64,000 nucleotides of DNA from an uncultured Actinomycetota bacterium (lineage in GTDB: Bacteria > Actinomycetota > Actinomycetes > CAVWCF01), in the NCBI GenBank assembly GCA_963753435.1, contig CAVWCF010000001.1, positions 922,711 through 986,710 on the forward strand. Direction: 5' to 3'. A model generated the notes under the pieces. That model was not told the origin of the DNA. It did no database searches and saw only the letters and a list, made by a program, of their open reading frames with translations. Made by a program: the position numbers and the translations under genes. Of this stretch, positions 27,335-56,113 are shown in pieces; within the stretch, counting starts at the first letter, position 1; the number at the start of each line of letters is the position of its first letter.

Positions 27335-28018
27335 ATGCCGACACTGCTGGATGCGCTGGACGATCTCGTCTCGGCCGACGCAGCCAGGCCGCTGTTGACC
27401 TGGTACCGCGACGGGGCCCGGGTGGAACTGTCGGGGGCCACCGTGGCCAACTGGGTCGCCAAGACGGCGGGGCTACTGGAGAACGAGCTACTCATCGGGC
27501 CCGGCTGCACGGTTCGGGTTCTTCCGGGACAGCACTGGCTGTCGCTGGTGGTCCCGCTTGCTGTTTGGCGCGTAGGCGCCGCCCTCGTCGATGCTGGGCC
27601 GGCGGACCTGTTGGTGTCCGAACAAGTGGACGAGGACATCGATGCCGCGGAGTTCCTGATGCTGCCCAGCGACCCGTTCGGTCTGTCCCGCGCCGCGGTA
27701 CCGCCCCCGTGGCAACTCTTCAGCGAGTTGGTTCAGGCCCAACCCGATCGCTACACCGCGCCACTACCCGGCGGTCCGCAGTTGGCGATCGCGTCCGCGC
27801 CCCAGTTGACTCACGAGCAGCTGATCGACCGGGCCCACGCCGACGCGGCGGCCGTTTCGCTGCCGAGCGAAGGCCGGTTGCTGCTGGTCACCACAACCAA
27901 GTCCGCAGACCCCCTGCGGCTCTGGTGCGCAACCATCTCGGTGTCCGGCTCGATGATCCTCGCCGCGGAGTTGACCGAAGGGCTCGCGGCTGAGAAGGCC
28001 GACGTAACGATCAGTTGA
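27335..28018 (+). CDS. Conserved actinobacterial protein (TIGR03089-like)
   Basis: 227 aa, no recognisable catalytic motif. The family assignment is from memory of typical neighbours of this locus. Confidence 0.4.
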   Translation: MPTLLDALDDLVSADAARPLLTWYRDGARVELSGATVANWVAKTAGLLENELLIGPGCTVRVLPGQHWLSLVVPLAVWRVGAALVDAGPADLLVSEQVDEDIDAAEFLMLPSDPFGLSRAAVPPPWQLFSELVQAQPDRYTAPLPGGPQLAIASAPQLTHEQLIDRAHADAAAVSLPSEGRLLLVTTTKSADPLRLWCATISVSGSMILAAELTEGLAAEKADVTIS

Positions 28019-29510: not shown

Positions 29511-29553
29511 AACGCTGTCAGTCGGCACCGGTCCATGGGCACTTGAGCGCCCA

Positions 29554-34025: not shown

Positions 34026-34044
34026 TCCTCCGTCATTCCTCCGT
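34023..34044 (-). repeat. Perfect 11-bp tandem duplication covering the Shine-Dalgarno sequence and the ATG of the amidase gene (minus strand reads acggaggaatg acggaggaatg)
   Basis: Read directly: cattcctccgt at 34023-34033 and again at 34034-34044. Only the promoter-distal ATG (complement of 34023-34025) is in frame with the amidase ORF. Confidence 0.85.
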
Positions 34045-34168
34045 AGCGTTATCGCAGGCGCCAGCGGAAGCCGCCTCACCCATTTGGAGGTATCGGGCCC
34101 CGCCGCCGCGGACTTGAACACCCTGAGGCCTCCGCGCGCAGACACGCCAGAGGGCGGCCGAAAGGATC

Positions 34169-35401: not shown

Positions 35402-38038
35402 CCCCAACCCAAGGAAGGGCGCCAGAACAGCAGCGCTCTTCCTGCCATCGTGGAGTTCAGAGACGAATCTCAGCCCGGACGCCGCGGATGCGCGGACCTG
35501 CTCCGGATCGCTGAGCAGCGCCAGGAGCACCTGCTCGAGCGAGTCCGCATCCGCCTGAACCACTGGTAGCGGCAACGGCAGGCGGTCGCGAACCGACGCG
35601 GTCACGTTGCCGACAACGCACCTGCCCGCGGCCATCGCTTCGCAGGCCAGGACCCCGTAGGAGCCGATCGCGAATTGATCGAGCACGATGTCTGCAGCGG
35701 CCATGGCTGCGGGCATTTCCTCCGGTGGAACACCCTGCAGCCGCCGATAGGTGAGTACCCCGTCCGCCTCCAGGCGCTGAAGCAGCGAATCCACCCGGTC
35801 ACTGCCCTTGAGGGAAGACCGCGATGGGGCATGCAGCACCACCGGCGGCCCGTCGTGCTCCAACGGCGTTGTCGACGTTGCCCACATCTGCATGTCCACC
35901 ACCACCGGCAGCCACGTCGCGGTGGGCACGTCGTCCAGCAGGTCCGGCGTGGAAACAAAGACCGGCCCATCAAAGCTGTCGATGAGCGGCCGCAGCTCGG
36001 CCGTCACCCGGCTGAGCCGGGTGCTCAGTTCGCTGGTGGGGTCGGCGTACGGGGAGTGCAGATGCATACGACGGTGGCGGGCCGGGTCACGCACTTCCGA
36101 ACCGTGGAAGACCGCCGCGACCTCCAGGCCGTTGCTGCGCAGGGCTGCCGCATCGTCAGCGAAGGTGCGGCCATTGAGCAGCCCGGCGATCGGGCGCCCT
36201 GCTTCCAGCAGGACGTGGGTCGCGGTGTCGCAGAGGTGCGCGAAGTACTGCTGCTGCCACTGCAGATCCTTCGCGTAGGTGTCCGGCGAGATCCGCGTGT
36301 CCGCGGGGAAGTCCAAACCGCCCTTCTCCACGGCCAGCACCTCGGTCTGCACTTCGGGGTAGGCCCGGTGCACCGCCTGCGCCCACTGCCAGGCCTGCCC
36401 GGCCATGTTCGCCGGCCCAACGGCCAGGTGAGTCGCACCCGATGCCCGCCGGCCCGCCGCCGGTGTCGATTCCACCAAATCACCCGGATTGAGATCGGGC
36501 ACGCGGCCAAGGTCCGCCCAGTTCGCCTCCGGCAGCAGCCGGCGATACAGCTGCGCCAGTTCGGCTTCCTGCGCCTCCCAGGTGAGTGGCGCAAGCAGCG
36601 CAGCGTCGGTGACACGTTCTCGGTATTCGACGTACCCGGCGCGCACCCGGCCCACGGCGTCAGCCAGCGACCGCGGATCGTCCGCAACGTGCACCTCGCC
36701 GGTTCCAGTCTCGGCGAGGAACTCCGCTTGGGTGCGGCAGTCACTGGCCACGACGGGCAGCCCCGCGTGCAGGTACTCGAAGAGTTTGTTGGTCAGCGCC
36801 ATGTCGTGACTGCCGAAGTGCAGCAAGGGCAGCAGGCCGACATCAGCAGAGGACAGGAACGAAACGACGTCGCCAGGGGCTACCGGGTTGAGGAAGTGGA
36901 CACGATCCGAAACACCAACCGATGCCGCTTGCTCCCGAAGTCGCCGCACCGCATACGTGTCGTTGTGTGGCACACACACAACGGCCAAGTGCGCGTCGGG
37001 GAGTTGCGACAGCGCGTCGATGGCCGTCTGCACTCCCCGGGCCACCGTCACCCCACCGGAGTAGACGAGCAACAGGGTGTCCGCATCCAGACCACATTGC
37101 TCGCGGACGCCTTCCTGACGAGTTCCGCGGCGGCTCTCATCGTGGATCGGCGTGTTCAGGATCAGCGTCGGTTGCTGGCGTAACGAGTGCTCGCGCTGAA
37201 GCCGCGACGCGATCGCCGGGGAAACGGTGATGACTCCGTCGGCGCGGCGGATGAAGTCGGATTCCAGCGCCGCCCAAGCCGATCGCACTCGGGCGGTTCG
37301 TCCCCCGTACAGGCTCAGCCCGCGCACGTACTCATGCGCGTCATAAACCCAGGGTGTCTGCCTGCCGGCCCGTTCCGCCCGGACGGCGGCATTGGCGGCC
37401 ACCAGCAGCAGGTCGGCATCATGGGAATGGATCAGATCCGGCTGCAGCGAATCGATGACGGCCGCGTATGAGGTCTCGTAGTCGTACACCTGCGGTACCA
37501 CCCGACCCCAGACGACCGGCCACGTCAGCCGGGCCATCAACCCGTCGTAGGCACGCCAGGACTTCGTCCAGACCTTGGCGAAGCCGCGCTGCCCGGCTCG
37601 GCGGGCGCGCAACCACTGACCGCGCAACTGCCACCAGCGCCGACGCAGTCGCCGCCGCTCAATGCCGGCCCTGGTGTACTCCAGTCGCGCCCGGGCGCGG
37701 ACGGCCTGCTCCTCGGCGGGTGTTCGGTAGCCGACCAGGTTCGGCGGCCTGCGACGACGCCCGCGCGCGGCATTGCGTGCGTCCCGAGAGCGCCAGGAGA
37801 TGGGTATTCGCAGGACGGTTACTGGCCCCATGTTCCGGGTGCTGCGCCGACCATCCGAGGCGTACGCGATCAGCGTGACACGCGCGCCCAACCTGGCTGC
37901 CGACAGCGCCGTCTTGCGGATTCGGGTGTCCGCGGCGACGTCGTTGCCGGCCAGCATCACCACATGCGGTTGCACGGTCTCGCGGGCCACGTCCGGGTCG
38001 GTCACGTCGGGAAACCTATGCGGCGCCGCCGGGTCCAC
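35390..38038 (-). CDS. Large tandem GT-B glycosyltransferase (N-terminal GT4-like module plus a second GT-B module)
   Basis: 882 aa. Module 1 ends with the GT4 motif (LTNKLFEYLHAGLPVVASD...). Module 2 (from about HLAVGPANMAGQAWQWAQ) has a second GT-B C-lobe (VVLHAPSRSSLKGSD...ACEAMAAGRCVVGNV). Module 2 is paralogous to the C-terminus of the 39829-41694 protein. Confidence 0.65.
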   Translation of the reverse strand: MDPAAPHRFPDVTDPDVARETVQPHVVMLAGNDVAADTRIRKTALSAARLGARVTLIAYASDGRRSTRNMGPVTVLRIPISWRSRDARNAARGRRRRPPNLVGYRTPAEEQAVRARARLEYTRAGIERRRLRRRWWQLRGQWLRARRAGQRGFAKVWTKSWRAYDGLMARLTWPVVWGRVVPQVYDYETSYAAVIDSLQPDLIHSHDADLLLVAANAAVRAERAGRQTPWVYDAHEYVRGLSLYGGRTARVRSAWAALESDFIRRADGVITVSPAIASRLQREHSLRQQPTLILNTPIHDESRRGTRQEGVREQCGLDADTLLLVYSGGVTVARGVQTAIDALSQLPDAHLAVVCVPHNDTYAVRRLREQAASVGVSDRVHFLNPVAPGDVVSFLSSADVGLLPLLHFGSHDMALTNKLFEYLHAGLPVVASDCRTQAEFLAETGTGEVHVADDPRSLADAVGRVRAGYVEYRERVTDAALLAPLTWEAQEAELAQLYRRLLPEANWADLGRVPDLNPGDLVESTPAAGRRASGATHLAVGPANMAGQAWQWAQAVHRAYPEVQTEVLAVEKGGLDFPADTRISPDTYAKDLQWQQQYFAHLCDTATHVLLEAGRPIAGLLNGRTFADDAAALRSNGLEVAAVFHGSEVRDPARHRRMHLHSPYADPTSELSTRLSRVTAELRPLIDSFDGPVFVSTPDLLDDVPTATWLPVVVDMQMWATSTTPLEHDGPPVVLHAPSRSSLKGSDRVDSLLQRLEADGVLTYRRLQGVPPEEMPAAMAAADIVLDQFAIGSYGVLACEAMAAGRCVVGNVTASVRDRLPLPLPVVQADADSLEQVLLALLSDPEQVRASAASGLRFVSELHDGRKSAAVLAPFLGLGSAG

Positions 38039-38531
38039 CCGACAGCGCCTCGCGGTCGAGACCGGAGCGCAGGTCGGCGTTCGGACTCAGTCGGGCCAAG
38101 TGCCAGACCACGGGCCAGGCCGCTGCGGTCGTGGGGATGATCTGCGTCAACGTACCCGGGTCGATGGCGCGCAAGTAGTGCCTGCGGACAACGGCCCAGT
38201 CAAGCTGTGGCAGGACCGCTTCGACCGCCTTCGTGCCACGGAGGCCGGGCCACCAAGGAGCGGTTCGCAGCGGCGACTGCCGACGCACCAGCTTTGCCGC
38301 GACCGAGCGCGGATCTGCGGCCAACGGTGCGATCGGCAGTGTCGAGGGATAGCGGGCGGCGGTGTCGAAGACGCGCACACCTCTGGGCAGGTCCGGCCAG
38401 CCCTGCTTGTCGCGTCGAATCAACAACGCCTCCCCTCCAGCCCGTACTACTCGGCCGAGGTCGTTGACCATCTGCGGGCGTCGGTGGTCCTCGAGAGCGA
38501 CCACGAGAACCCGGGCTCGCGCCGCGTTCAC
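38016..38531 (-). CDS. Hypothetical protein, translationally linked between two glycosyltransferase genes
   Basis: 171-aa ORF whose ends overlap both neighbours by a few nt. No recognisable motif. It could be a degraded GT N-lobe fragment. Confidence 0.35.
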   Translation of the reverse strand: MNAARARVLVVALEDHRRPQMVNDLGRVVRAGGEALLIRRDKQGWPDLPRGVRVFDTAARYPSTLPIAPLAADPRSVAAKLVRRQSPLRTAPWWPGLRGTKAVEAVLPQLDWAVVRRHYLRAIDPGTLTQIIPTTAAAWPVVWHLARLSPNADLRSGLDREALSGGPGGAA

Positions 38532-39832
38532 AAGTCACCTTCGGCGGTTCGAACCAACCACTCCGCATGCGGGGTGACGGTGGCCGACCAGGTGTGGCGG
38601 GCAGCCAGCCGCCGGGTGGCGGCGACCTGCTCGTCAGTGCGCGCGACCGCGAGTCCAGCAAGCCGGGAGAAACCGTCCGCCACCTCGCCGGGAGACAACC
38701 CAGTCACCCCGCAATACAGCGGTGACTCGGCGAAGACCCGGCTCGTGTCATTCTCCGGGCCGTAAGCACCCAGCACCGGAAGGCCGGAGCCGAGGTAGTC
38801 GTACGCCTTGGCGGAAGTCACATATCCGGAAGTAGGCAGCGTCAGCAGGAGCGCGTCGAACCGGGCGTAGGTAGCGGCCAATTGCGGATGCGGAACCGAG
38901 CCCCCGTAACTGACGCCGTCGTCGGCGTAGCTGCTGATGATCGCACCGGCGGGATCACCACCAGAACGCCAGAACCCCAGGTGACCGTGCAAGACCAACG
39001 TGGCCTGCGACCCCGCCGCGGTATTCCGGAAGAGACGCCAACCGGCCAGGACTTCGGCCAACGGCAGGTCCGGACGGATGGTCCCCACGTAGCCGACGGA
39101 CAGGGGGCCGGACGGGGGCGGCCGCAGCGGCGTATTGAGGATCGCGGCGTCGAAGCCGTTCTCCATGACAACGATCCGGTCCGCCGCTTGCGGGTAGCGG
39201 TCGCGGTACCACTGGGCCAGGGCCTCGTTGACGGTGATCGTCCGCGCGGCGCGGCCGATGATCTTGCTTTCCCACGCCCAGGCCCGGTCTTGCGGGGCGA
39301 AGCGATCACGGCCGGTGAACTGGTCCATGGTCCAGGCGTCCCGGTAGTCGACGACCGAGGGGATGCGCAGGGCCCGGGCCACCGAATGCGCAGCGCCCAG
39401 CGACACGTACGGCCCCCCGGTGGCGAGCACGAGGTCTACCGGTCGCCGCCGATGCTCGCGCAGGGCCGACTGCACCAAGATGGGCAGTGCGTGCCCGTAC
39501 CGCTCCGGGAAGGCCGTCCGAGCCGCTCGCTCCCAGAAGGCCGAGTGCAATCGAGGCATGTTCCCCCGAGTCCAGGACATGGCGCGGAAGTCGGTGACCA
39601 AGTGCTGGTGTGGGAACCGGAAGTGCACCACTCGGACCTTGGGGCTGACTTCGGTGGCTGCGTCCCGATCGATGCCGGTCAGGTCGTCGTAGAAGGAATG
39701 GTCCACCGCCAGTGCCGTGACGTCCGCCCCGGCCTCGACCAGAGCGTTGGCCCAGGCCCTGATCCGGTTGACGCCGCTGCCCCGGGCCGGCGGGAAGTGA
39801 AACGGAAGCATGAGGACATGCGGTTGCCTCAT
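38528..39832 (-). CDS. GT4-family glycosyltransferase (paralogue of 46966-48297)
   Basis: N-terminus HVLMLPFHFPPARGSGVNRI. C-lobe with E-x7-E-like region (KAYDYLGSGLPVLGAYG). 434 aa. Confidence 0.7.
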   Translation of the reverse strand: MRQPHVLMLPFHFPPARGSGVNRIRAWANALVEAGADVTALAVDHSFYDDLTGIDRDAATEVSPKVRVVHFRFPHQHLVTDFRAMSWTRGNMPRLHSAFWERAARTAFPERYGHALPILVQSALREHRRRPVDLVLATGGPYVSLGAAHSVARALRIPSVVDYRDAWTMDQFTGRDRFAPQDRAWAWESKIIGRAARTITVNEALAQWYRDRYPQAADRIVVMENGFDAAILNTPLRPPPSGPLSVGYVGTIRPDLPLAEVLAGWRLFRNTAAGSQATLVLHGHLGFWRSGGDPAGAIISSYADDGVSYGGSVPHPQLAATYARFDALLLTLPTSGYVTSAKAYDYLGSGLPVLGAYGPENDTSRVFAESPLYCGVTGLSPGEVADGFSRLAGLAVARTDEQVAATRRLAARHTWSATVTPHAEWLVRTAEGDL

Positions 39833-41694
39833 CGCCCACCTCCGGTCCCCGAAGACAAGAAGCTCGCCAGCGCTTCCGCTGCCGCGTCGCCATTGTGGAA
39901 CCGTGCCACGAAGTCCCGGCCCGCTTCGCCCCGGCTGCGCAATATCTCCGGGTCGGCCAGCAGCGCCTCCATCTGCGCCGCCAACGTCTCCGGGTTGGCT
40001 TCAACGATGGGTACCTCCGCCGGGGAACGCTCCCGCAGGGTGGCCCCGACGTTTCCCACCACACACCTGCCCATAGCCATGGCCTCACAGGCCAAGTGGC
40101 CGTACAAACCCAGCAGCACCTGGTCCACCACCACGTCGGCGTCGGCGATGGTGGCCGCCACCTCTGCCGGTGTGATGCCTTGCAGTCGGCGGTAGCGAAT
40201 GCGGCCCGCCTCGGCCAGGGGCTGCAGCACCGCTTCGATCGCTGCGGTTCCCTTGAGCACGGGGTTCGACGGCGCGTGCACCACCAGCGGTGGTTCGGAG
40301 GTGGTCAGCGGTCGCGTCGTCGGCAGTCGGTTCATATCGACGGTGACCGGCAACCACGTTGCTTTCGGTACGTAGTCCAGAAGGTCGAGCGTGGAGACGA
40401 AGGTAGGACCATCGAACCCATCCAGCAGCGCCAGGAGTTGGTCGCACTTGGCCTGCAGCGTGGCGGTGTAGGGGTCATCGGGATCTGCGAAAGGTGAGAA
40501 GGCGTGGGCGTCGCGGTGCCGACGCGGATCGCGAACCTCCGAACCATGAAAGACGAGCCCGACGTGAATTCCCGCGTCACGCATCTCCTCGACGTCGCCA
40601 CGGAAATCAGATCCGTTCAGCGTCCCGAACAGTGGGCGTCCCGCCTCGACCAGGGCGTGCGTCCAAGTGGACAGACATTCAGTGCGCAAGCGCTCCTGCC
40701 AGGCGCGGTCCCGGGCGAAGACCTCCGCGGTGACGACCTCGTCCGCCGCATACGCGAACGCTCCCGCCTGGATCGCAACCACGCGGGTGTCCAGTCCGAA
40801 CGCCCTGTTCGCAGCGCCCGTCCAGGCAGCAGCCTGGCCGGCGGAGTTCGTTGGCCCCATACCGAACAGCGGTCCCGACACCGAACGAGCCGGCAGCGGC
40901 AATCGCTCCGGTTCGTCCCATGCGGGTCGCTCGGTCGCTTCGGTGAGGTCTGCGCCAAAACGATGGCAAATTTCGAGAACGTGCTCCCCCGCGGCCCTTG
41001 CATCGGTGTCGGCTGCAATGACTCCGTCCACAGCGGCGGCCATTCGGTTCGTCAGCCGCTCGGTCACGTCCGCGCCCAGCCATGAGCGACCAGCCGCGAG
41101 GGGTGCGGAGTCGTACAGAACCCGGAGGCGCCGACCTCGGCTGACAGCACGAGCCTTAGCCCGGGCGGCCGGCACGAGGAACTCCGCACCGGCCTGGACG
41201 AAGTCAGGTTCCAGGGAGTCAATCTCGCTTGCTACCGCTGTCTCAAGATCGAGAGCTTGGGCGATGTCCCTATCGCTACGGGCCCAACCCCATTCGGAGA
41301 ACAGTTGGTTGCTGGGCCATCGCCGGGCAATGCGCAGACGCAGATCCCACCAGGATCTGGCCAACCGGCGGTGCTCCAAACCCGCCCACTGCCGCTTGAG
41401 GCCCATCACCCGAATCGCAGTGCTCTCCCGATGCCCACTCGATTCGGATTCAGACGACCCCGCCGCGGTTGCCCCGCTACCCCAATCACGGAACTTGTGG
41501 CCAAGCGGTACCCGCCGAATGCGCACCGTGCCCAAGCGGGTCTCCCCGCGGTGGCCACCGGGAGTTGTGATCAGGATCGTGACGGCTAGGCCACGCCTTG
41601 CCAAATCCGTGGCAATCCGTCGGACCCGGTCATCGGGCTGGGCATCCCCCAGCGCGAGCAGGACCACGCGCGCGGGGGCGGGTAGCCCGGTCAC
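39829..41694 (-). CDS. GT-B-fold glycosyltransferase-like protein (C-terminal module paralogous to module 2 of 35390-38038)
   Basis: 621 aa. The C-terminal 350 aa align by eye with the 882-aa protein (FGMGPTNSAGQAAAW...VVHAPSNPVLKGT...ACEAMAMGRCVVGNV). The N-terminal 250 aa are Rossmann-like but degenerate. Confidence 0.6.
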   Translation of the reverse strand: MTGLPAPARVVLLALGDAQPDDRVRRIATDLARRGLAVTILITTPGGHRGETRLGTVRIRRVPLGHKFRDWGSGATAAGSSESESSGHRESTAIRVMGLKRQWAGLEHRRLARSWWDLRLRIARRWPSNQLFSEWGWARSDRDIAQALDLETAVASEIDSLEPDFVQAGAEFLVPAARAKARAVSRGRRLRVLYDSAPLAAGRSWLGADVTERLTNRMAAAVDGVIAADTDARAAGEHVLEICHRFGADLTEATERPAWDEPERLPLPARSVSGPLFGMGPTNSAGQAAAWTGAANRAFGLDTRVVAIQAGAFAYAADEVVTAEVFARDRAWQERLRTECLSTWTHALVEAGRPLFGTLNGSDFRGDVEEMRDAGIHVGLVFHGSEVRDPRRHRDAHAFSPFADPDDPYTATLQAKCDQLLALLDGFDGPTFVSTLDLLDYVPKATWLPVTVDMNRLPTTRPLTTSEPPLVVHAPSNPVLKGTAAIEAVLQPLAEAGRIRYRRLQGITPAEVAATIADADVVVDQVLLGLYGHLACEAMAMGRCVVGNVGATLRERSPAEVPIVEANPETLAAQMEALLADPEILRSRGEAGRDFVARFHNGDAAAEALASFLSSGTGGGR

Positions 41695-42983
41695 GCCTCG
41701 CCGATGACGCGCCTCACCACACCCGGGAACCTGCTGGCCTCGGTGACACCGCGACCATCCACCAAGGCCTTCAGGCCGGGTAGGTCCGCGACGGCCAACT
41801 CCCGGTACTCCGGGTGGTCGGCCTGAAGCACCGCGGCGTCCGCCGGCTCGCCCAGGTGGTACGGGGTGAAGCCCAGATCCGCCAACTCCGCATCGGAGTA
41901 CATCGGGTCGTGCACAGCCACGTGCGCGCCACGCTGCGCCAAGGCCGCGACGGTCGGGAAGACCCCGGAGAAGGCCGTCTCCTTCACACCACCCCGGTAG
42001 GAGGCGCCGAGAACCACCACGCGCTGATTCGTGAGGTCGCCCATGGCCTCAACAAGCAACTCCGTCGCGTACGACGGCATGGCCATGTTGGCCTCGCGGG
42101 CGGCACGCACCACCGTGGCGTCTGGGTCGTTGAACAAGTACAGACGCGGGTAGACCGGGATGCAGTGACCGCCGACAGCGATGCCCGGCCGATGAATGTG
42201 GCTGTAGGGCTGGGAGTTGGACGCGTCGATCACCTTGTGCACATCGATCCCGTGCTCGGCGGCGAACCGGGCGAACTGGTTGGCCAGCCCAATGTTCACA
42301 TCGCGGTACGTGGTCTCGGCCAGTTTCGCCATCTCCGCGGCCTCGGCCGAACCCAGGTCCCAGACACCGTTGGGGCTGGCCAGATCCGGACGGTCGTCGA
42401 ACTGCAGGACCGCCTCGTAGAAATCCCGGGCCCGGTCGGCACCGGCTGGCGCCAGCCCGCCGATCAACTTCGGGTACTTGCGCAAGTCGGCGAAGACGCG
42501 GCCGGTCAGCACGCGCTCCGGCGAGAAGACCAGATGGAAATCCGTGCCCTCGACCAGTCCGGAACCTTCTTCGAGCATCGGCTTCCACCGCGTCCGGGTG
42601 GTCCCGACCGGCAGCGTCGTTTCGTAGGAGACCAGCGTTCCTGGGGTCAGGTTCGCCGCGATGCTGCGGGTCGCCGAGTCCATCCAGCCGAAGTCGGGCT
42701 GCCAGGTTTCGTCGTTTACGAAGAGCGGCACGACCACGACCACGGCGTCCGCGCCAGGAACAGCCTGGGCGTAGTCGGTGGTGGCGGTGAGCAATCCGGA
42801 GCCCACTACGTCGGCCAGGTACTCGCCCAGGTGCGCCTCGCCCGGGAAGGGCTCGACGCCACCGGCCACTGCCGCGACCAGGTCCGGGTTGATGTCGACC
42901 CCGACCACCTGATGGCCGGACCGGGCGAACTGAACCGCCAGCGGTAGCCCGATCTTGCCCAGCGCGACAACCGCGATCTTCAC
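41691..42983 (-). CDS. UDP-N-acetyl-D-hexosamine 6-dehydrogenase (WbpA/WecC-type nucleotide-sugar dehydrogenase)
   Basis: GTG start VKIAVVALGKIGLPLAVQFA (NAD-binding GxGxxG). Catalytic Cys region (GGHCIP). UDP-binding C-terminal domain. The long upstream part of the 610-aa ORF is antisense-like low complexity and is excluded. Confidence 0.8.
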   Translation of the reverse strand: MKIAVVALGKIGLPLAVQFARSGHQVVGVDINPDLVAAVAGGVEPFPGEAHLGEYLADVVGSGLLTATTDYAQAVPGADAVVVVVPLFVNDETWQPDFGWMDSATRSIAANLTPGTLVSYETTLPVGTTRTRWKPMLEEGSGLVEGTDFHLVFSPERVLTGRVFADLRKYPKLIGGLAPAGADRARDFYEAVLQFDDRPDLASPNGVWDLGSAEAAEMAKLAETTYRDVNIGLANQFARFAAEHGIDVHKVIDASNSQPYSHIHRPGIAVGGHCIPVYPRLYLFNDPDATVVRAAREANMAMPSYATELLVEAMGDLTNQRVVVLGASYRGGVKETAFSGVFPTVAALAQRGAHVAVHDPMYSDAELADLGFTPYHLGEPADAAVLQADHPEYRELAVADLPGLKALVDGRGVTEASRFPGVVRRVIGEA

Positions 42984-43064
42984 CCGTGGCCCTCTCTTTC
43001 GGTGATGGGAGGTTACCCGGCGCGCTACCCTCCCCCGCACTCTTCGGGACACAGGAGGGCCTTT

Positions 43065-44126
43065 GTGAAGGTCTTGAGCGTCGTGGGCGCCCGACCGCAG
43101 TTCGTCAAACTCGCTCCGGTGGCCGAGGCGGTGACGCGGGCCGGACATCAGCATGTGATCGTCCACACCGGGCAGCACTACGACGCACGCATGAGCGACG
43201 TCTTCTTCGCCGATCTGGCCATCCCGGATCCTGATGTGCACCTCGGCGTCGGGTCCGGCAGCCACGGAGTGCAAACCGGCTCCATGCTCGCCGCAATGGA
43301 CGCCGTCCTCGACGAGCACCGCCCCGATTGGGTCCTTGTCTACGGTGACACGAACTCCACCCTCGCCGGCGCGCTGTCCGCGGTGAAGGTCCACATCCCC
43401 GTGGCGCACCTGGAAGCCGGCTTGCGATCCTTCAACCGCCGCATGCCCGAGGAGCACAACCGGGTCCTGACCGACCATGCCGCCGATCTGCTGCTGGCGC
43501 CGACGCAGGTCGCGATGGGTCACTTGGATGCCGAAGGGCTGGCCGCAAGGTCGGTGCTGGTCGGCGACGTGATGACCGACGTCTGCTACCGCGTCCGGGA
43601 CGCCGTCCTGACCGAGCAGCCCCTACCGCCAGCGGGACTGGCATCGGGCGACTACCTCGTCGCCACCATGCATCGGGCGGAGAACACCGACGACCCGGCT
43701 CGGCTGCGAGCGGTCGTCGACGCCTTGGCGGGCCTACCCGTTCCGGTCCTGCTCCTGGCCCATCCGCGCCTGGTGACCCGCTGTCACGAGTTCGGCATCC
43801 CGCTGGACGGCGGGGCCCTGCGCACCAGCGAGCCACTCAGCTACCCCGACATGGTGGCGGCGGTGCTGCAATCACGTGGCGTCGTGACCGACTCCGGGGG
43901 GCTGCAGAAGGAGGCCTACCTACTGCAGCGGCCCTGCACGACGGTCCGCACCGAAACTGAGTGGGTGGAAACCCTGGACGGCGGGTGGAACGTCCTTACG
44001 CCGGACCCCGCTGACGTGCAGGAGCACGCACTCCGCCCTGCCCCAGCTGCACCTACCGGCCATCCGTACGGCGACGGGCACGCCGGCGGTCGAGTGGTCC
44101 AAGCGCTCAGCGACCGAACTCGCTGA
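43065..44126 (+). CDS. UDP-N-acetylglucosamine (or UDP-GlcNAc3NAcA) 2-epimerase, non-hydrolysing (WecB/WbpI family)
   Basis: GTG start 6 nt after aggaggg. VKVLSVVGARPQFVKLAPV ... HTGQHYD ... VYGDTNSTLAGALSA ... HLEAGLRS, the typical WecB signature series. Confidence 0.85.
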   Translation: MKVLSVVGARPQFVKLAPVAEAVTRAGHQHVIVHTGQHYDARMSDVFFADLAIPDPDVHLGVGSGSHGVQTGSMLAAMDAVLDEHRPDWVLVYGDTNSTLAGALSAVKVHIPVAHLEAGLRSFNRRMPEEHNRVLTDHAADLLLAPTQVAMGHLDAEGLAARSVLVGDVMTDVCYRVRDAVLTEQPLPPAGLASGDYLVATMHRAENTDDPARLRAVVDALAGLPVPVLLLAHPRLVTRCHEFGIPLDGGALRTSEPLSYPDMVAAVLQSRGVVTDSGGLQKEAYLLQRPCTTVRTETEWVETLDGGWNVLTPDPADVQEHALRPAPAAPTGHPYGDGHAGGRVVQALSDRTR

Positions 44127-44197
44127 CTGCAGCCGGCGCCGGCCGGAACCCAGACTTTCGATGTGTCCGGCGTCTGGCGACGGCGGTCGCGGCGGCG

Positions 44198-45199
44198 CTA
44201 GTTCGGCTGTATGACGCTGACGGTGGACCCGGTGTTGGCGGACTCGATGCAGGCCTCGGCTACGGCAACTGTCGCCAGCCCCTGGCGCATGGTCACGATG
44301 TCTGCATCTTTGCCGAGGACCGCGTCCCGGAACGCCTCGTGCTCGGTGCGCAACGGCTCAGCTTTCGCGAATGCGTAACGGATCATGTCGCCCTCGGAAA
44401 CGCCGCGGAACTTGGCGATCGCGTCCCACTCGGTCGCGACCGACCCGTTGGCGAAGAAGGTGAGGTCCGCAGTCAGCGTGTCCGCCACGAAGGTGCCCCG
44501 CTCACCAGTGACCACCGTCACCCGCTCCTTCATCGGCGACAGCCAGTTGACCAGGTGATTGGTGACCGTCCCGTCCGCCAACTGACCGACCACTGCCACC
44601 AGGTCCTCGTGCGAACGGCCCGACTTGTGGGCCACGCGCGCGGCAACCGCGGTGAAGGGCTGCTGGGCAACCCAGGCCGTCAGGTCGATGTCGTGGGTGG
44701 CCAGGTCCTTGACCACCCCGACGTCGGCGATGCGAGCCGGGAAGGGGCCCTGTCGACGGGTGACGATCTGGTAAACGGCGCCGAGGTCACCCTCGGCCAG
44801 GCGACGCCGCAGCTGCTGCAGGGCAGGGTTGTAACGCTCGATGTGCCCCACGGCCCCGACCAGACCCGCGGCGTCGAACGCGTCTGCGACCCGGGCAGCG
44901 GATTCGGTGTCAGGCGCCAGCGGCTTCTCGATCATGGCGTGGACGCCGGCCTCGGCCAGGGCCAAGGCAACTGACTCGTGATACGCCGTGGGTACGGCCA
45001 CCATGCAGTAGTCGATGCCGGTGGCGATCAGGTCTTCCACGCTGGACAGCACCGGCAGCCCGGCGGCCACTCCGTGCACGTCGCCGCCCGGATCGGCAAC
45101 GGCCACAAGCTCGACACCGTCAAGCGCCCGCAACACCCGGCCGTGGTGCCTGCCCATCATGCCCAGGCCGATGAGGCCGGCCCGCAGGTTGCTGCTCAT
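44198..45199 (-). CDS. Gfo/Idh/MocA-family NAD-dependent oxidoreductase (WbpB-like UDP-GlcNAcA 3-dehydrogenase candidate)
   Basis: LRAGLIGLGMMGRHHGRVL N-terminal Rossmann. EKPLA motif. 333 aa. 4-nt overlap with the upstream aminotransferase gene. Confidence 0.75.
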   Translation of the reverse strand: MSSNLRAGLIGLGMMGRHHGRVLRALDGVELVAVADPGGDVHGVAAGLPVLSSVEDLIATGIDYCMVAVPTAYHESVALALAEAGVHAMIEKPLAPDTESAARVADAFDAAGLVGAVGHIERYNPALQQLRRRLAEGDLGAVYQIVTRRQGPFPARIADVGVVKDLATHDIDLTAWVAQQPFTAVAARVAHKSGRSHEDLVAVVGQLADGTVTNHLVNWLSPMKERVTVVTGERGTFVADTLTADLTFFANGSVATEWDAIAKFRGVSEGDMIRYAFAKAEPLRTEHEAFRDAVLGKDADIVTMRQGLATVAVAEACIESANTGSTVSVIQPN

Positions 45200-46287
45200 G
45201 CGCCGGCCTTTGCCAGCGCGTTGACGCCGTTGACGATGCGTTCAAGATCCCCATCCGACAGGGCCGGATGCACCGGCAGGCTCAGCACCTCAGCGGCCGC
45301 GCGCTCCGTCTCCGGCAGATCAAGCGTCAGCCCGAACGACGGCAGGCGGTGGTTGGGGATTGGGTAGTACACCCCGCTGCCGACGCCGTGTTCGCTCGCA
45401 AGTGCCGCCGCGAACGCGTCGCGATCTCCGGGGACGCGGATCGTGTACTGGTGGTAGACGTGCACCGCCCCGTCCGCAACCGCGGGCGTGATCACGCCAT
45501 CGAGGTTCTCGTCCAAGAAGGCGGCGTTGGCCTGGCGACGGGCCGTCCAGCCAGGCAGCTTGCCCAACTGCACCCGGCCGATCGCGGCGTGCACGTCCGT
45601 CATTCGGGCGTTGAAGCCGACGACCTCGTTCTCGTAGCGCCGCTCCATGCCCTGATTGCGCAGCAGCCGGACCATGCGGGCCACGTCCTCCGTGGCACAC
45701 GCGACCATGCCACCTTCACCGGAGGTCATGTTCTTAGTCGGATAGAGGCTGAACATGGCGAACGTGCCGAAGGAGCCGACGGGTTGCCCGGCCAAGGCGG
45801 CGCCGTGTGCCTGGGCCGCGTCCTCGTAGATCTGGATGCCGTGTTTGGCAGCGATGGCGGTCAAGGCGGTCATGTCCGCGGGGTGGCCGTAGAGATGGAC
45901 CGGCATGACACCCACGGTGCGCTCGGTAATGGCGGCCTCGACCGCAGCCGGGGACAGGCAGTAGTGGTCCGGCTCGATGTCGGCGAACACCGGGGTGGCC
46001 CCGGTCAGCGCGACGGAATTGGCAGTCGCGGCGAATGTGAAGGACGGGACGATGACCTCGTCGCCGGGGCCGACGCCGGCTGCCAACAGGCCGAGGTGCT
46101 GGCCCGAGGTGCCCGAGTTGACGGCTACGCAGGTGCGCCCTCCGACCAGGGCGTCGGCGAACTCAGCCTCGAAAGCGGCGACCTCCGGGCCCTGCGCGAT
46201 CATCCCGCTGCGCAGGACGCGGTCAACGGCCGCGCGCTCGTCATCGCCGATCAACGGCTTTGCAGCCGGGATCATCTCCAGCGTCAT
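45196..46287 (-). CDS. DegT/DnrJ/EryC1/StrS-family PLP aminotransferase (WbpE-like)
   Basis: Start MTLEMIPAAKPLIGDDE. PLP-lysine region FSLYPTKNMTSGEGG. ATGA overlap with the acetyltransferase stop (46284-46287). Confidence 0.85.
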   Translation of the reverse strand: MTLEMIPAAKPLIGDDERAAVDRVLRSGMIAQGPEVAAFEAEFADALVGGRTCVAVNSGTSGQHLGLLAAGVGPGDEVIVPSFTFAATANSVALTGATPVFADIEPDHYCLSPAAVEAAITERTVGVMPVHLYGHPADMTALTAIAAKHGIQIYEDAAQAHGAALAGQPVGSFGTFAMFSLYPTKNMTSGEGGMVACATEDVARMVRLLRNQGMERRYENEVVGFNARMTDVHAAIGRVQLGKLPGWTARRQANAAFLDENLDGVITPAVADGAVHVYHQYTIRVPGDRDAFAAALASEHGVGSGVYYPIPNHRLPSFGLTLDLPETERAAAEVLSLPVHPALSDGDLERIVNGVNALAKAGA

Positions 46288-46877
46288 GCGTCCTCCTCGA
46301 GCAGCACGCCATCCTGCTCCCGGTAGTTGCGCCCCGTTCGCGGGCACGTCCAAGTACCTGAACCGGCATCGGTAAGCGGCTCGCCGGCATGCCCAACCCA
46401 GCGAATCCGCTTGGCGGGAACGCCTGCGACCAGCGCGAAGTCCGGCACGTCGCGAGTGACAACCGATCCGGCGGCGACCATCGCCCACCTCCCGATGGTC
46501 ACCGGGGCGACGCAGACCGCGCGGGCCCCGATGGATGCACCCGTACGGATCGTCACCCCGACCGGTTCCCAGTCGTCACCGGACTTGACGGTGCCATCCG
46601 GGTTGACCGACCTGGGGTAGTGGTCGTTGGTCAGAACCACGGCCGGACCGATGAACACGCCGGACTCCAGTTTCGCCGGCTCGTAGACCAGGGCGTAGTT
46701 CTGGATCTTCACGTTGTCGCCCACGTCAACGCCGGTTCCGACGTATGCACCGCGACCAACAACGCAGCCTTCGCCCAGTCGCGCGCCCTCGCGGATCTGG
46801 GCCAGATGCCAAACAGAGGTCCCCTCGCCCATGGCAACGTCATCGGCGACATCCGCAGACGGGTGCACGCGCGCCAT
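46284..46877 (-). CDS. Hexapeptide-repeat sugar N-acetyltransferase (WbpD-like)
   Basis: Left-handed beta-helix hexapeptide repeats (VHPSADVADDVAMGEGTSVWHLAQIREGARLGEGCVVGRGAYVGTGVDVGDNV...). About 197 aa from MARVHPSADV. Confidence 0.8.
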   Translation of the reverse strand: MARVHPSADVADDVAMGEGTSVWHLAQIREGARLGEGCVVGRGAYVGTGVDVGDNVKIQNYALVYEPAKLESGVFIGPAVVLTNDHYPRSVNPDGTVKSGDDWEPVGVTIRTGASIGARAVCVAPVTIGRWAMVAAGSVVTRDVPDFALVAGVPAKRIRWVGHAGEPLTDAGSGTWTCPRTGRNYREQDGVLLEEDA

Positions 46878-46965
46878 GGGACTCCGATCGGCTGGGGGCA
46901 GGCGCATACGCTATACGAGCCGAGGAGCGATTCGGGCCGTCGTAGACGGCCGTAGCGGAGGTTTG

Positions 46966-48297
46966 ATGACGGCGTCTGCACCGCACGTCCTCTACATCGC
47001 ATGGGGTTTCCCGCCTTGCCGCGGCAGCGGTGTCTACCGCGCACTCGCTACGGCCAACGCGTTTGCCGCCAACGGCTGGAAAGTCACGGTGCTCACCGCC
47101 GATCGAGAAATCTGGCTCCGCTACACCGGCGCGGACCTCAGCCTGGAGGAACGCATCGATCCGCGGGTCAACGTGGAGCGGGTTCGGTTCGAGTGGCCGA
47201 CTCTGGACCCTGACATCTCCAGTTGGTCGCGCTTGCGTGTCGCCACCCCGCGGGTGTGGGGCCGGGTACGCCGCCTGCGCGACCAGTTGCCGTTCCCCGA
47301 GGTCGCCTACGGCCCTTGGCTGCCCGTACTCAAGGAAGCGGTGCAGCGCATCCACGAACAGGACCCGGTCGATCTGACCGTGGCAACGGCAAACCCGCAT
47401 GTGACATTCGGCGCAGCACACCACCTGTGGCGGACCGCGGGCGTGGACTACGTCATGGACTACCGCGACGCGTGGACCCTGGACGTGTTCAGCGGCGACC
47501 GGGTGCACTCACCGCGATCGCGCGCCGGTCGACGCGAAGCCGAACTGATCGGCGCCGCCAAAGAGGTCTGGTTCGTAAACGACCGGATCCGCGACTGGCA
47601 CCGCACCCAGTACCCGGGGCAGGCCGATCGCATGCACACAGTCGCCAACGGCTACGACCCGGAGTTCGTCCCACCGGGCATCGGCCGCGCCCCCGATCCG
47701 GATCGGCCGTTGCGCTACGGATACCTGGGCACGATCTCGACCCGGGTTCCGATCGGTGAGTTCGCCGAGGGCTGGCGCCAGGCTCGCCGGGCGGAGCCGC
47801 TTGCGGACGCCACCGCGGTAATCCGTGGGCACCTCGGGCACTACCGCGCCGCGAATGCGAACGTGTCGGCGATGCTGGATTCGGCGCAAGAAATCGGCAT
47901 CACGTACGACGGACCCGTGGCTAAGGCGGACGTTGCGGACTTCTATCACTCCGTGGACGTCCTCCTGCTCATCTTGGGCTCGGGCCGGTATGTGACCTCG
48001 GGCAAGGTGTTCGAGTACGCCGCAACTGGGCTGCCGATCGTGTCCGTTCACGACCCCGACAGCGCCGCGAGCACGGTGCTGGCCGACTACCCATCGTGGT
48101 TCCCCGCCGCCAGCCTCAGCGCGGCGGACATCGCAGCCGCGCTGCTCGCGGCCGGGCGGGCGCGCCGTGCCGAGACGGCCGAAGCGCGCGATGCCGCCGT
48201 CGCGGCGGCCCAGAAGTTCGCGCGGGATGCCCAGCTGCGTCCGCGCGTCGATGCCCTGCGCCCCAAGGCGCCAACCTCGAGTGCACCGACATCGTGA
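46966..48297 (+). CDS. GT4-family glycosyltransferase (paralogue of 38528-39832)
   Basis: Start MTASAPHVLYIAWGFPPCRGSGVYR, parallel to HVLMLPFHFPPARGSGVNR in the paralogue. C-lobe KVFEYAATGLPIVSV. Confidence 0.7.
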   Translation: MTASAPHVLYIAWGFPPCRGSGVYRALATANAFAANGWKVTVLTADREIWLRYTGADLSLEERIDPRVNVERVRFEWPTLDPDISSWSRLRVATPRVWGRVRRLRDQLPFPEVAYGPWLPVLKEAVQRIHEQDPVDLTVATANPHVTFGAAHHLWRTAGVDYVMDYRDAWTLDVFSGDRVHSPRSRAGRREAELIGAAKEVWFVNDRIRDWHRTQYPGQADRMHTVANGYDPEFVPPGIGRAPDPDRPLRYGYLGTISTRVPIGEFAEGWRQARRAEPLADATAVIRGHLGHYRAANANVSAMLDSAQEIGITYDGPVAKADVADFYHSVDVLLLILGSGRYVTSGKVFEYAATGLPIVSVHDPDSAASTVLADYPSWFPAASLSAADIAAALLAAGRARRAETAEARDAAVAAAQKFARDAQLRPRVDALRPKAPTSSAPTS

Positions 48298-48881: not shown

Positions 48882-49856
48882 TCAGGCAAGGAGTGCGGCG
48901 ACGGCCGCCGCCAGCCGCCGGTACTCCCCCGTGTCCGTTCGCGTGGCCGCCCAATCCCGAGCTCGATCGCGTAGTCCCAGCAACTCTGATGGATCCAGTT
49001 GCCAACGCCGCAGCACTTCGCCGGCCGCAGCCGCATCGACCACGATCCCCGCTCCGGAGTCCACCAGCAGTGACTCCTGCCGGGGCAGTGGCGATGCCAG
49101 CACCGGCAGTCCGGCGGTCAAGTACTCCACGACCTTGGTCGGCAAAGCCTCTACGAACGCCGGCGTCGAGTGCAGCAGACTCAAGCCCACCCACGCGTCA
49201 GCGGCACCCGCCCAGGCCCGCTCGGGGGGTTGGCGGCCCCAGAGCCGGACACGGTCACCAAGTCGCTCCGCTGCGATCTGGGCCCGCAGCTCGTCCGCTT
49301 CGCTCGGGGCGATCGGTCCAACGAGATCCATCGTCCAGTCTGGCGCTTGCGCGATGGCGCGAACCATGTCGAACGCGCCCCGTGTGCGTCGGATATCGCC
49401 TACATACAGAGCGCGAGGCCGGGCAGCGGGATCGGCCGGCTCCGGCAGATAGCCGGACTCCGGCGTGTTGCGGACGACGACGCGGTTGCGCGCGCGCAGT
49501 GGCGGCACCTGGTCGTCAGCCACGATGGTCAGGTCCGCGCGAGCGGTGAGTTCGTTGGCCCAGCGCAGTCCCGAGGTAACGGCCTTGACCTGGGCCGAAG
49601 GCCAATCTCGGTCCAGCACCAACTTCGTGTAGTCCTCGTGTACGTCGACCGCCACGGGCGGACCGCCCAGGCGGCGCCGTGTCATTGCGGGCACGACCAG
49701 GTCCGGGTCCAGCACCAGCAGTACTGAACCCGTGGCCTGCCAGGGCAGTCGCGCCCCGGCCCGCAGGCGCGCACCGAGCCCCGAGCGAGGACGGGTGAAC
49801 ACACGCTCTGCTGATTCCGGGGCCGCGGCTGGATCACCCAGCCCGAGCACCTCCAC
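48882..49856 (-). CDS. Short GT4-like glycosyltransferase
   Basis: 324 aa. C-lobe with VVEYLTAGLPVLASP (E-x7-E region). The N-lobe is reduced. Confidence 0.6.
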   Translation of the reverse strand: MEVLGLGDPAAAPESAERVFTRPRSGLGARLRAGARLPWQATGSVLLVLDPDLVVPAMTRRRLGGPPVAVDVHEDYTKLVLDRDWPSAQVKAVTSGLRWANELTARADLTIVADDQVPPLRARNRVVVRNTPESGYLPEPADPAARPRALYVGDIRRTRGAFDMVRAIAQAPDWTMDLVGPIAPSEADELRAQIAAERLGDRVRLWGRQPPERAWAGAADAWVGLSLLHSTPAFVEALPTKVVEYLTAGLPVLASPLPRQESLLVDSGAGIVVDAAAAGEVLRRWQLDPSELLGLRDRARDWAATRTDTGEYRRLAAAVAALLA

Positions 49857-49957: not shown

Positions 49958-50735
<778 letters not shown>

Positions 50736-50758
<23 letters not shown>

Positions 50759-51617
50759 GCTCCCTGGACAAGAAGGCCCAACTCCCGACCAGCAGGGCGA
50801 TGATCGGCCACACGATCGCGCCCACGATCATGCCCGTGGTGGGAGAGGTAGCCCGAACCATGAGTTCACCCAAGCTCCCCATCAGCCCGAACAATGGGTT
50901 CAGTTGGAGCAAGACGAGCAGGACCGGGTTGTCCTCAAGCCGGTCCAGCACCAGTTCTGGCAACCAGATGATCGGGGATACGTACAACCAAATCCGCAGG
51001 AGGTACGGAAGGAAACTGGTCGTGTCGCGGAAGTACACCTGAAGGGTCGCCATCAGCATCGCCAGGCCAGACGCGAAGACGACCACGAGCCCAAGCAGCG
51101 GGATGGTCCACAACTGGATCCAGCCGAACGGCAGACCGGCGAATACATGGATCACGCCGTACACGGCAAGAGTCGGCAGGAACCGGTAGAACGCTGTCCG
51201 GACTGCGGAAAGCGGCAGCAACACCCGAGGGAACGCCGTGTTGGTGATCATCTTGCCGGCGCTGACGACGCTCGTTGCCCCACCCGACATTGACTGCGCG
51301 ATGAAGTAGAAGGTGAACAGACACAGGAGCAGGTGCGGGAAGAACGCGGCGTCGGAACTTATGTCGCGACCACCGATGATCACGATCAGCAGCCAGTAGA
51401 CGCAGGCCAGCAGCAGCGGATTCAGGATGTTCCAGATCCGCCCCAGCACGGTGAGGCTCTGCTGGGCCCTGGCGGTGGCTCGGGACAACTCCGCCGCGAA
51501 CTCGCGGCGGCGCCAGGCCTCAGACAAATAGGGACCAAGCGGCGGCAACCCAGCCCGATGGGGTGCATAGACGTGGTGATCGCCCAGGAAATCCACGTCA
51601 GGGGCTGCTGAGCGCAC
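50736..51617 (-). CDS. ABC-2-type polysaccharide exporter permease (TagG/Wzm/KpsM-like)
   Basis: Six TM helices. The N-terminal cytoplasmic segment and helix pattern are typical of ABC-2 permeases. 23-nt overlap with the ATPase gene. Confidence 0.8.
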
Positions 51618-56038: not shown

Positions 56039-56113
56039 GGTGTGGAACCCTAACGTTCAGGTCACGAGTGTCCGATGGACATTGCGGGCGATTCGCGGCG
56101 CGAGGAGTTGGTA

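Follow-up and report, generated by a model that had tools for sequence, protein, structure and literature searches.

We here describe, in a stretch of 64,000 nucleotides (nt) from an uncultured actinobacterium related to Motilibacteraceae (the whole stretch is called the window below), a module of five genes spanning 5.2 kb that probably makes UDP-GlcNAc3NAcA (UDP-2,3-diacetamido-2,3-dideoxy-D-glucuronic acid) and from it UDP-2,3-diacetamido-2,3-dideoxy-D-mannuronic acid (UDP-ManNAc3NAcA), for an exported wall polymer attached to peptidoglycan by a LytR-CpsA-Psr (LCP) ligase. In the scheme that we propose, a dehydrogenase of 430 amino acids (aa) would oxidise UDP-N-acetylglucosamine (UDP-GlcNAc) at C-6, a Gfo/Idh/MocA enzyme would oxidise C-3, a DegT enzyme would transaminate the same carbon, and a WlbB-type acetyltransferase would N-acetylate it to give UDP-GlcNAc3NAcA, which a WbpI-type epimerase would convert at C-2 to UDP-ManNAc3NAcA in the last step. 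The product would then enter a teichuronic-acid-like wall polysaccharide, built by co-transcribed and neighbouring glycosyltransferases, exported by an ABC-2 transporter and joined to peptidoglycan by the adjacent LCP ligase. We place epimerisation last because related Streptomyces without an epimerase gene make GlcNAc3NAcA polymers; the substrates of the dehydrogenase and the oxidoreductase, the order of the C-6 and C-3 steps and the fate of the sugar are likewise given as we infer them.

An original prediction, made from the letters of the window, had named five open reading frames (ORFs) and their families, and the ORF listing, the translations, Pfam and NCBIfam all agree with it:

41691-42983, minus strand: NAD-dependent UDP-N-acetylhexosamine 6-dehydrogenase, 430 aa, predicted counterpart by function of WbpA and UtrD
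43065-44126, plus strand: UDP-GlcNAc3NAcA 2-epimerase of the WbpI/WlbD type, 353 aa (Epimerase_2, E = 1.6e-88)
44198-45199, minus strand: Gfo/Idh/MocA NAD-dependent sugar-nucleotide 3-dehydrogenase (the oxidoreductase), 333 aa, predicted counterpart by function of WbpB and UtrB, of another clade than WbpB
45196-46287, minus strand: pyridoxal-phosphate (PLP)-dependent DegT-family sugar-nucleotide 3-aminotransferase, 363 aa (DegT_DnrJ_EryC1, E = 7.7e-118), predicted counterpart of WbpE and UtrA
46284-46877, minus strand: left-handed beta-helix N-acetyltransferase of the WlbB/WbpD type, 197 aa, counterpart of UtrJ

Pfam and NCBIfam assign all five proteins to their families with E-values of 1e-19 to 1e-118, and these matches are far beyond chance. 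As the prediction had it, the five activities that lead from UDP-GlcNAc to UDP-ManNAc3NAcA thus appear, by family, to be encoded together. The 4-nt coupling that it described for the trio of acetyltransferase, aminotransferase and oxidoreductase genes can be read directly in the sequence, as an ATGA overlap at both the acetyltransferase/aminotransferase and the aminotransferase/oxidoreductase junction. The dehydrogenase and epimerase genes form a divergently transcribed pair, each with a GTG start and a plausible ribosome-binding site directly 5' of it (GAAAGAGAGGG for the dehydrogenase, AGGAGGG for the epimerase). The dehydrogenase stop codon shares a GTGA with the GTG start of the following gene, which is glycosyltransferase (GT)-like, and since serial overlaps continue through four genes in all below the dehydrogenase, the latter heads an overlapping run that includes several GT-like genes, a run that the original prediction did not mention. 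A scan for promoters and terminators between 41 and 48 kb gave nothing beyond chance level.

Of the five enzymes the epimerase is the best defined. It matches the UDP-GlcNAc3NAcA 2-epimerase of Thermus thermophilus HB27 (8SXV and related entries) with 360 bits at 52% identity, versus about 114 bits for Escherichia coli WecB and the canonical UDP-GlcNAc 2-epimerases; it also lies above the cut-off of the broad TIGR00236 wecB model. The Thermus enzyme is specific for UDP-GlcNAc3NAcA and has been defined both biochemically and structurally (PMC10622841), with three adaptations to the bulkier substrate: Trp307 instead of the 3-OH-binding Arg of WecB-type enzymes, Tyr96 instead of His/Gln, and Ala18 instead of Leu/Met (Thoden et al. 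2023, PMC10622841). The first two determinants are present in the window epimerase, as Trp300 and Tyr93, and none of the catalytic residues (Asp, Glu, His) is lost; where Arg, His and Glu stand in WecB, it carries Trp, Tyr and Gln. Among 57 actinobacterial orthologues the Trp occurs in all and the Tyr in 55. By scores and residues, the window epimerase clearly belongs to the type that acts on UDP-GlcNAc3NAcA.

For comparison we used Wbp-type reference clusters from metagenomes. A scan with the Thermus epimerase as query gave 80 loci with a WbpI-type epimerase, with no Thermus contig among them, and loci with adjacent Wbp-type genes were chosen as references. In some, such as L108 and L110, the genes for dehydrogenase, oxidoreductase, acetyltransferase, aminotransferase and epimerase are adjacent. 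Identity to these clusters is 37-50% for the window epimerase, 32-48% for the acetyltransferase and 27-49% for the aminotransferase. The acetyltransferase aligns over its full length with Bordetella petrii WlbB (3MQG/3MQH; 150.5 bits, 42.5% identity), the second-best PDB match scoring 83 bits, and by this measure it can be assigned specifically to the WlbB/WbpD type. For the aminotransferase, which has its PLP lysine within the motif SLYPTKNMTSGEGG, the PDB matches are 7B0D (275 bits), DesV (253), Pseudomonas aeruginosa WbpE (237) and QdtB (227). The enzyme groups by similarity with sugar C-3 aminotransferases, WbpE, DesV and QdtB among them, but 7B0D and DesV outscore WbpE and the scores do not settle its regiospecificity. 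The prediction had called the module exactly the five-enzyme set of the Wbp pathway, which holds for the epimerase (WbpI/WlbD) and the acetyltransferase (WbpD/WlbB) but overstates the orthology of the oxidoreductase and the dehydrogenase, which lie in other clades than the Wbp-type enzymes.

The module recurs throughout the phylum. Homologues of the oxidoreductase number in the thousands in the protein collection, and none of the best 120 falls below 78% identity to it, with Motilibacteraceae, Knoellia, Nanopelagicales, Angustibacter and Carbonactinospora among those named. When one genome per species was scanned, at least 564 genomes encoded a relative of the oxidoreductase; the best 80 of these loci, at 72-83% identity, include Knoellia, Janibacter, Cellulomonas, Kribbella, Jiangella, Phycicoccus, Intrasporangium and Terrabacter, and also Microlunatus, Nocardioides, Kineosporiaceae, Frankiaceae, Yinghuangia and others. 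Neighbours were counted in the 52 of these 80 loci that have full 10-kb flanks (the related loci below). All 52 have the aminotransferase, 51 have the acetyltransferase, 50 the dehydrogenase (mean identity 74%), 42 the epimerase and 41 the ABC ATPase, and the mean identities are 70-77% for the precursor enzymes versus 36-55% for the glycosyltransferases. The order acetyltransferase-aminotransferase-oxidoreductase is kept in Carbonactinospora and Knoellia together with neighbouring GT4 and ABC-2 genes, and Yinghuangia (Streptomycetaceae) has all five genes at 63-74% identity. By genomic count the module is common in Actinomycetota. The expectation that the sugar would be rare in this phylum is contradicted both by these genomes and by chemistry, since ManNAc3NAcA has been found in Streptomyces griseus (PMC13274773) and in the wall and matrix polysaccharide of Cutibacterium acnes (PMC6598116); teichuronic acids are a chemotaxonomic trait of Kribbella (PMC6113628).

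Ten of the related loci have no 2-epimerase within 10 kb. All of these have the aminotransferase and the oxidoreductase, all but one the acetyltransferase, and eight the dehydrogenase beside the trio. By analogy with Streptomyces antibioticus, such loci may serve polymers of GlcNAc3NAcA only, or the epimerase may lie further off; in one Carbonactinospora strain it is 4 kb away, beyond inserted genes.

The closest known parallel is the utr cluster of Streptomyces, from the same phylum and with the same five enzyme types (UtrD dehydrogenase, UtrB oxidoreductase, UtrA aminotransferase, UtrJ N-acetyltransferase, UtrH 2-epimerase). In S. griseus the teichuronic-acid-like polymer was determined by nuclear magnetic resonance as ->3)GalNAc-alpha(1->4)-ManNAc3NAcA-beta(1->, with GlcNAc3NAcA as the reducing-end residue, and UtrD, UtrB, UtrA, UtrJ and UtrH were assigned to a Pseudomonas-like UDP-ManNAc3NAcA pathway (Cell 2025, PMC13274773). 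The oxidoreductase, dehydrogenase, epimerase and acetyltransferase measure 339, 428, 367 and 200 aa there and 333, 430, 353 and 197 aa in the window. The closest structures listed for UtrB, UtrD and UtrJ are GnnA 7BVJ, Cap5O and WlbB 3MQH (PMC13274773, supplementary table), which the window proteins share for these three enzymes. S. antibioticus, without a 2-epimerase, makes poly-GlcNAc3NAcA (PMC13274773), which argues that the dehydrogenase accepts a gluco-configured substrate. The two systems differ in that TarS/TarM-like glycosyltransferases graft the Streptomyces polymer onto ribitol-phosphate teichoic acid and the utr locus varies between species (PMC13274773), whereas the core region that holds the window module is conserved and also encodes an ABC-2 exporter, an LCP ligase and CWB2 proteins.

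The Wbp/Wlb systems of P. aeruginosa O5, Bordetella pertussis and T. thermophilus HB27 (WbpA, WbpB/WlbA, WbpE/WlbC, WbpD/WlbB, WbpI/WlbD) have the five chemical steps and the product that we propose for the window, and their epimerase, acetyltransferase and aminotransferase are homologous to those of the module, at 41-52%, 32-48% and 27-49% identity. Both redox enzymes are of other clades, however (20-24% identity for the 3-dehydrogenase, 26-35% for the 6-dehydrogenase), the reference order is wbpA-B-D-E-I or has fused B-D genes (loci L108 and L113) and so differs from that in the window, and their acceptor is lipopolysaccharide where that of the window would be a Gram-positive wall polymer.

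Several observations weigh against the proposed scheme, and they mostly concern the two redox enzymes. The oxidoreductase has the N- and C-terminal GFO_IDH_MocA domains of Pfam, but its best NCBIfam model is NF040723, an archaeal UDP-GlcNAc 3-dehydrogenase, which it matches over the full length with 195.7 bits against a cut-off of 450. Its best PDB match is another UDP-GlcNAc 3-dehydrogenase, GnnA 7BVJ (87-94 bits, 34% identity over the N-terminal 206 residues), and identity is 20-24% to oxidoreductases of Wbp-type clusters, and 20-30% in the comparison with the reference clusters above. Of the 60 matches listed by a family-profile search of the PDB, none carries the name WbpB or WlbA, and neither 3OA2 nor 3O9Z is among them. 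The profile gave 67 bits for 3Q2K and 52 bits for 3Q2I, both of which we take to be WlbA entries (the output labels them only as 'oxidoreductase' or 'dehydrogenase'), and these scores are no better than those of inositol dehydrogenases. By sequence the enzyme is not a WbpB/WlbA orthologue and belongs to a separate Gfo/Idh/MocA clade, whose nearest characterised relatives act on UDP-GlcNAc and not on the uronate; at 34% identity, however, a substrate is not transferable to it. Several of its homologues are named 'UDP-N-acetylglucosamine 3-dehydrogenase' in IMG. An AlphaFold model from a shallow alignment of 15 sequences reached a mean confidence (predicted local distance difference test, pLDDT) of 54.5, too poor for a fold search.

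The dehydrogenase has three UDPG_MGDP_dh domains, passes TIGR03026 (296.8 bits, cut-off 189.8) and carries its catalytic Cys in the motif VGGHCIPVYP. Its best PDB matches are 4R16 (226 bits) and Cap5O (177 bits), and its top scores are on models of UDP-ManNAc dehydrogenases, namely NF040825 (259 bits, cut-off 750) and WecC NF008286 (185.8 bits, cut-off 459). The actinobacterial dehydrogenases branch together in a neighbour-joining tree, as a deep clade apart from the Wbp-cluster types, E. coli WecC, Staphylococcus aureus Cap5O and Pyrococcus horikoshii 4R16, with 28-34% identity to the Wbp-cluster dehydrogenases and 32-36% to WecC/Cap5O/4R16 (32% to WecC); for the window enzyme itself, identity to the Wbp-type clusters is 26-35%. 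A tblastn search of plasmids gave only generically annotated matches below 42% identity. Sequence thus assigns the enzyme to neither the WbpA nor the WecC type, and it neither bears out nor excludes the refuting case named in the original prediction, a dehydrogenase that is a WecC. What decides is the context, which instead favours a link with the amination trio: the dehydrogenase accompanies it in 50 of the 52 related loci, the WecC and archaeal cut-offs are missed, and IMG names some of its homologues 'UDP-N-acetyl-D-glucosamine dehydrogenase'.

To be counted with these is the third determinant of the epimerase. At the position of Ala18, which has been proposed to give Tyr96 room to swing off the C-6' carboxylate (PMC10622841), the window epimerase has Leu16 (codon 43110-43112), as do 56 of the 57 actinobacterial orthologues (a Leu in each case), while in 79 metagenome WbpI-type epimerases Ala is the commonest residue and Leu occurs in 8. 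Recognition near C-6 may therefore differ from that in the Thermus enzyme. Finally, the likeness to the Utr proteins is one of enzyme types, sizes and closest structures, the Yinghuangia genome being the sole sequence link.

Two side observations concern related redox enzymes. In many of the Wbp-type metagenome clusters (L095, L113, L118, L126, L150, L152, L165) a single ORF of about 530-580 aa joins the 3-dehydrogenase to the WlbB-type acetyltransferase, and these fused oxidoreductases belong to another clade than the stand-alone enzymes of L105, L108 and L110. The window also encodes, besides that of the module, a nucleotide-sugar 6-dehydrogenase like UDP-glucose dehydrogenases in type (59235-60737, plus strand; 26% identical to the module dehydrogenase), which suggests that another uronic acid such as GlcA may be made too.

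The original prediction had further held that the oxidoreductase step needs a partner that recycles alpha-ketoglutarate. The P. aeruginosa 3-dehydrogenase works by a ping-pong mechanism with alpha-ketoglutarate, but those of B. pertussis and Chromobacterium violaceum have sequential mechanisms (PMC10622841), so that this need is not general even within WbpB/WlbA. For the clade of the window oxidoreductase, alpha-ketoglutarate dependence cannot be inferred.

The affinities of the redox enzymes lend themselves to an archaeal-type order with the same end product, in which the oxidoreductase would act first, on UDP-GlcNAc, using free NAD+ without recycling of alpha-ketoglutarate, transamination and N-acetylation would lead to UDP-GlcNAc3NAc, and late 6-dehydrogenation to UDP-GlcNAc3NAcA would be followed by epimerisation. 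We regard this as possible but doubtful. Both the best family model and the best structure of the oxidoreductase are UDP-GlcNAc 3-dehydrogenases, the IMG names of several homologues say the same, the dehydrogenase falls outside the clade of the Wbp-type cluster enzymes, and actinobacterial epimerases nearly all carry Leu in the position of Ala18; yet the characterised relatives of the acetyltransferase and the epimerase, WlbB and the Thermus enzyme, take uronate forms, the NF040723 score is far from its equivalog cut-off and 34% identity is too low for the substrate to be carried over, and some dehydrogenase homologues bear the name of a UDP-GlcNAc dehydrogenase. Genes mmp0350-mmp0353 and mmp0357 of Methanococcus maripaludis reportedly provide GlcNAc3NAcA and a ManNAc3NAcA derivative for the archaellin N-glycan. 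The best NCBIfam models of the window oxidoreductase and dehydrogenase (NF040723 and NF040825) are both archaeal, though matched far under their cut-offs (196/450 and 259/750), and the archaeal pathway feeds protein N-glycans and not a wall polymer. The archaeal 3-dehydrogenase behind NF040723 presumably serves the GlcNAc3NAcA pathway despite its UDP-GlcNAc name, and NF040825 models a UDP-ManNAc dehydrogenase, presumably not the archaeal counterpart of WbpA. A broader version of the same idea, which we advance as quite speculative, is that Actinomycetota use their own ancient ManNAc3NAcA variant, with both redox enzymes non-orthologous to WbpA/WbpB: a GnnA/archaeal-type 3-dehydrogenase would act first, without alpha-ketoglutarate, and the 6-dehydrogenase late, and in many orders the polymer would serve as the principal wall glycopolymer attached by LCP ligases and as the ligand of CWB2 hydrolases, encoded at a conserved mtrAB-whiB-fbiAB-lcp core locus. 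The GnnA/GnnB lipid A pathway itself fits poorly, as the similarity to GnnA is confined to the N-terminal 206 residues, the acetyltransferase and 6-dehydrogenase genes nearly always adjoin, and the genome is Gram-positive.

It is highly improbable that the module comprises two separate pathways, with the divergent pair being WecB/WecC-like and making UDP-ManNAcA and the trio making a non-uronic UDP-GlcNAc3NAc. The arrangement is reminiscent of WecB/WecC and MnaA/Cap5O (enterobacterial common antigen, S. aureus capsule, Micrococcus teichuronic acid), where a 2-epimerase and a 6-dehydrogenase of the same superfamilies are likewise divergent or adjacent, and such a split would account for the preference of the dehydrogenase for UDP-ManNAc references (the two models above, 4R16 and Cap5O), for the passing of the broad wecB cut-off by the epimerase and for the nearness of the oxidoreductase to UDP-GlcNAc-acting enzymes. 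But the epimerase has Trp where the 3-OH-binding Arg would be (in 57/57 orthologues) and scores three times as many bits on the UDP-GlcNAc3NAcA epimerase as on WecB, the dehydrogenase misses the WecC and archaeal UDP-ManNAc dehydrogenase cut-offs widely and, unlike WecC, is linked to a C-3 amination trio, beside which it stays in 8 of the 10 loci without a nearby epimerase, and the Streptomyces species that have these enzyme types produce GlcNAc3NAcA or ManNAc3NAcA, ManNAcA not being among the reported sugars (PMC13274773). That the polymer unit is instead a modified or other 3-N-acyl derivative (O-acetylated, amidated or a 3-acetamidino uronate), or the gluco epimer only, we consider unlikely. 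Amidino or amide variants exist in archaeal and Pseudomonas relatives, an Acyltransferase_3 gene is present in the locus, and a fifth or so of the related loci (10/52) have no epimerase within 10 kb; in S. griseus, too, chains end in 4-O-acetyl-ManNAc3NAcA (PMC13274773). The window epimerase, however, is intact with all catalytic residues kept, and Pfam scans showed no amidotransferase or ATP-grasp gene inside the locus. The trio was also considered as part of a 4-amino sugar pathway (bacillosamine, perosamine or QuiNAc4NAc), the kind of different aminosugar pathway that the original prediction had named as its refutation, and was rejected on gene content: no 4,6-dehydratase is encoded nearby, a 3-dehydrogenase is present instead, and the acetyltransferase belongs to the WlbB type and not to the PglD or PerB type.

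The genes around the module fit the assembly and export of a wall polymer fed by the proposed UDP-ManNAc3NAcA pathway:

34169-35401, plus strand: Acyltransferase_3 membrane protein (PF01757, E = 8.4e-32), candidate polymer O-acetyltransferase
35390-38038, minus strand: 882-aa double GT4, last gene of the overlapping run
38016-38531, minus strand: 171-aa hypothetical protein, in the run
38528-39832, minus strand: 434-aa GT4, in the run (Pfam GT4/GT1 domains occur in the run)
39829-41694, minus strand: 621-aa GT-like protein, in the run, 3' of the dehydrogenase gene
46714-48297, plus strand: GT-like protein with weak GT4/GT1 Pfam matches; the true start is probably downstream, near MTASAPHV
48882-49856, minus strand: GT1, weak GT4/GT1 Pfam match
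49958-50758, minus strand: ABC-2 exporter ATPase (ABC_tran, E = 6e-21)
50736-51617, minus strand: ABC-2 exporter permease (ABC2_membrane weak, 21.2 bits against a cut-off of 26.9)
51692 to about 53116, minus strand: GT4 by Pfam, start uncertain
52825-53796, minus strand: GT2 by Pfam
53945-55516, plus strand: LCP ligase (LytR_cpsA_psr, E = 1e-48, and LytR_C), candidate for attachment of the polymer to peptidoglycan

The overlaps in the run below the dehydrogenase are GTGA, ATGA and GTGA at the first three junctions and 23 nt at the last, with the ORFs as called. Homologues of the run genes (35390-41694) are found in 22-34 of the 52 related loci at 36-43% identity, and these genes probably encode polymer assembly enzymes. 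The best-conserved glycosyltransferase of the locus is the GT-like protein at 46714-48297 (55% identity, 34/52 loci), and the ABC-2 exporter genes are kept in 39-41 of the 52, as well as in the Carbonactinospora and Knoellia loci. Homologues of the Acyltransferase_3 protein, whose gene lies on the strand opposite to the glycosyltransferase genes, occur in 19 of the 52, namely Kribbella loci (43-48% identity) and one metagenome-assembled genome. Pfam scans of the locus gave no polyol-phosphate (TagF-type) match, the GT domains being GT4, GT2 and GT1 only. As listed, the GT4 ORF at 51692-53116 overlaps the upstream GT2 ORF by about 290 nt; its Pfam match starts at residue 111, so the true start is probably further downstream. 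The role in a wall polymer that had been predicted from the surrounding glycosyltransferases is consistent with these genes, with the exporter and with the LCP ligase.

The wider window, with a G+C content of 66-74% throughout, has Gram-positive markers (WhiB, MtrAB-LpqB, LCP) and the following further genes:

2476-27639: in order, lpqB-mtrB-mtrA, sahH, manA, a Trm112-like gene, pmm, DUF3499, DUF5719, a 1048-aa GT2, WhiB (17637-17936), fbiC/fbiA/fbiB, and a ManC-like gene with a GT2
28011-34145, minus strand, and 56075-58186, plus strand: four proteins with triple CWB2 (PF04122) repeats, one with SpoIID and one with Amidase_2, flanking the polymer locus
58211-63719: acyl-CoA dehydrogenases and purE/purK, a later part of the same gene order

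We take this gene order to be that of the Mycobacterium tuberculosis Rv3244c-Rv3276c core region, where the arabinogalactan linker is what wbbL1, rmlD and the LCP ligase Rv3267 act on. In the window, a polymer cluster of about 27 kb separates the ManC/GT2 pair from the LCP ligase, and would occupy the site that is conserved for the main wall glycopolymer attached by LCP. Of 50 related loci, 18 have homologues of the CWB2 proteins no more than 10 kb from the module, although these were whole-protein queries and some matches may reflect the amidase or SpoIID domains. In the wall, the CWB2 domains may have this polymer as their ligand.

The module is widespread in Actinomycetota and the same enzyme set was already assigned in Streptomyces in 2025 (PMC13274773), and the finding is therefore real and largely ordinary. 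The modest interest that remains is in the pair of non-orthologous redox enzymes, in how strongly the module is conserved from order to order and in its link to CWB2 proteins. For annotation, a pathway context could be added to the module's entries under 'Gfo/Idh/MocA family oxidoreductase' and under 'nucleotide sugar dehydrogenase', and biochemists are alerted that both redox enzymes depart from the Pseudomonas paradigm. For the organism, the analysis gives the probable composition of the main anionic wall polymer of this uncultured relative of Motilibacteraceae, and it marks the precursor module as a widely conserved and strongly constrained trait of many actinobacterial orders. In Streptomyces such polymers are toxin receptors, and they may thus matter for recognition by phages and lectins as well.

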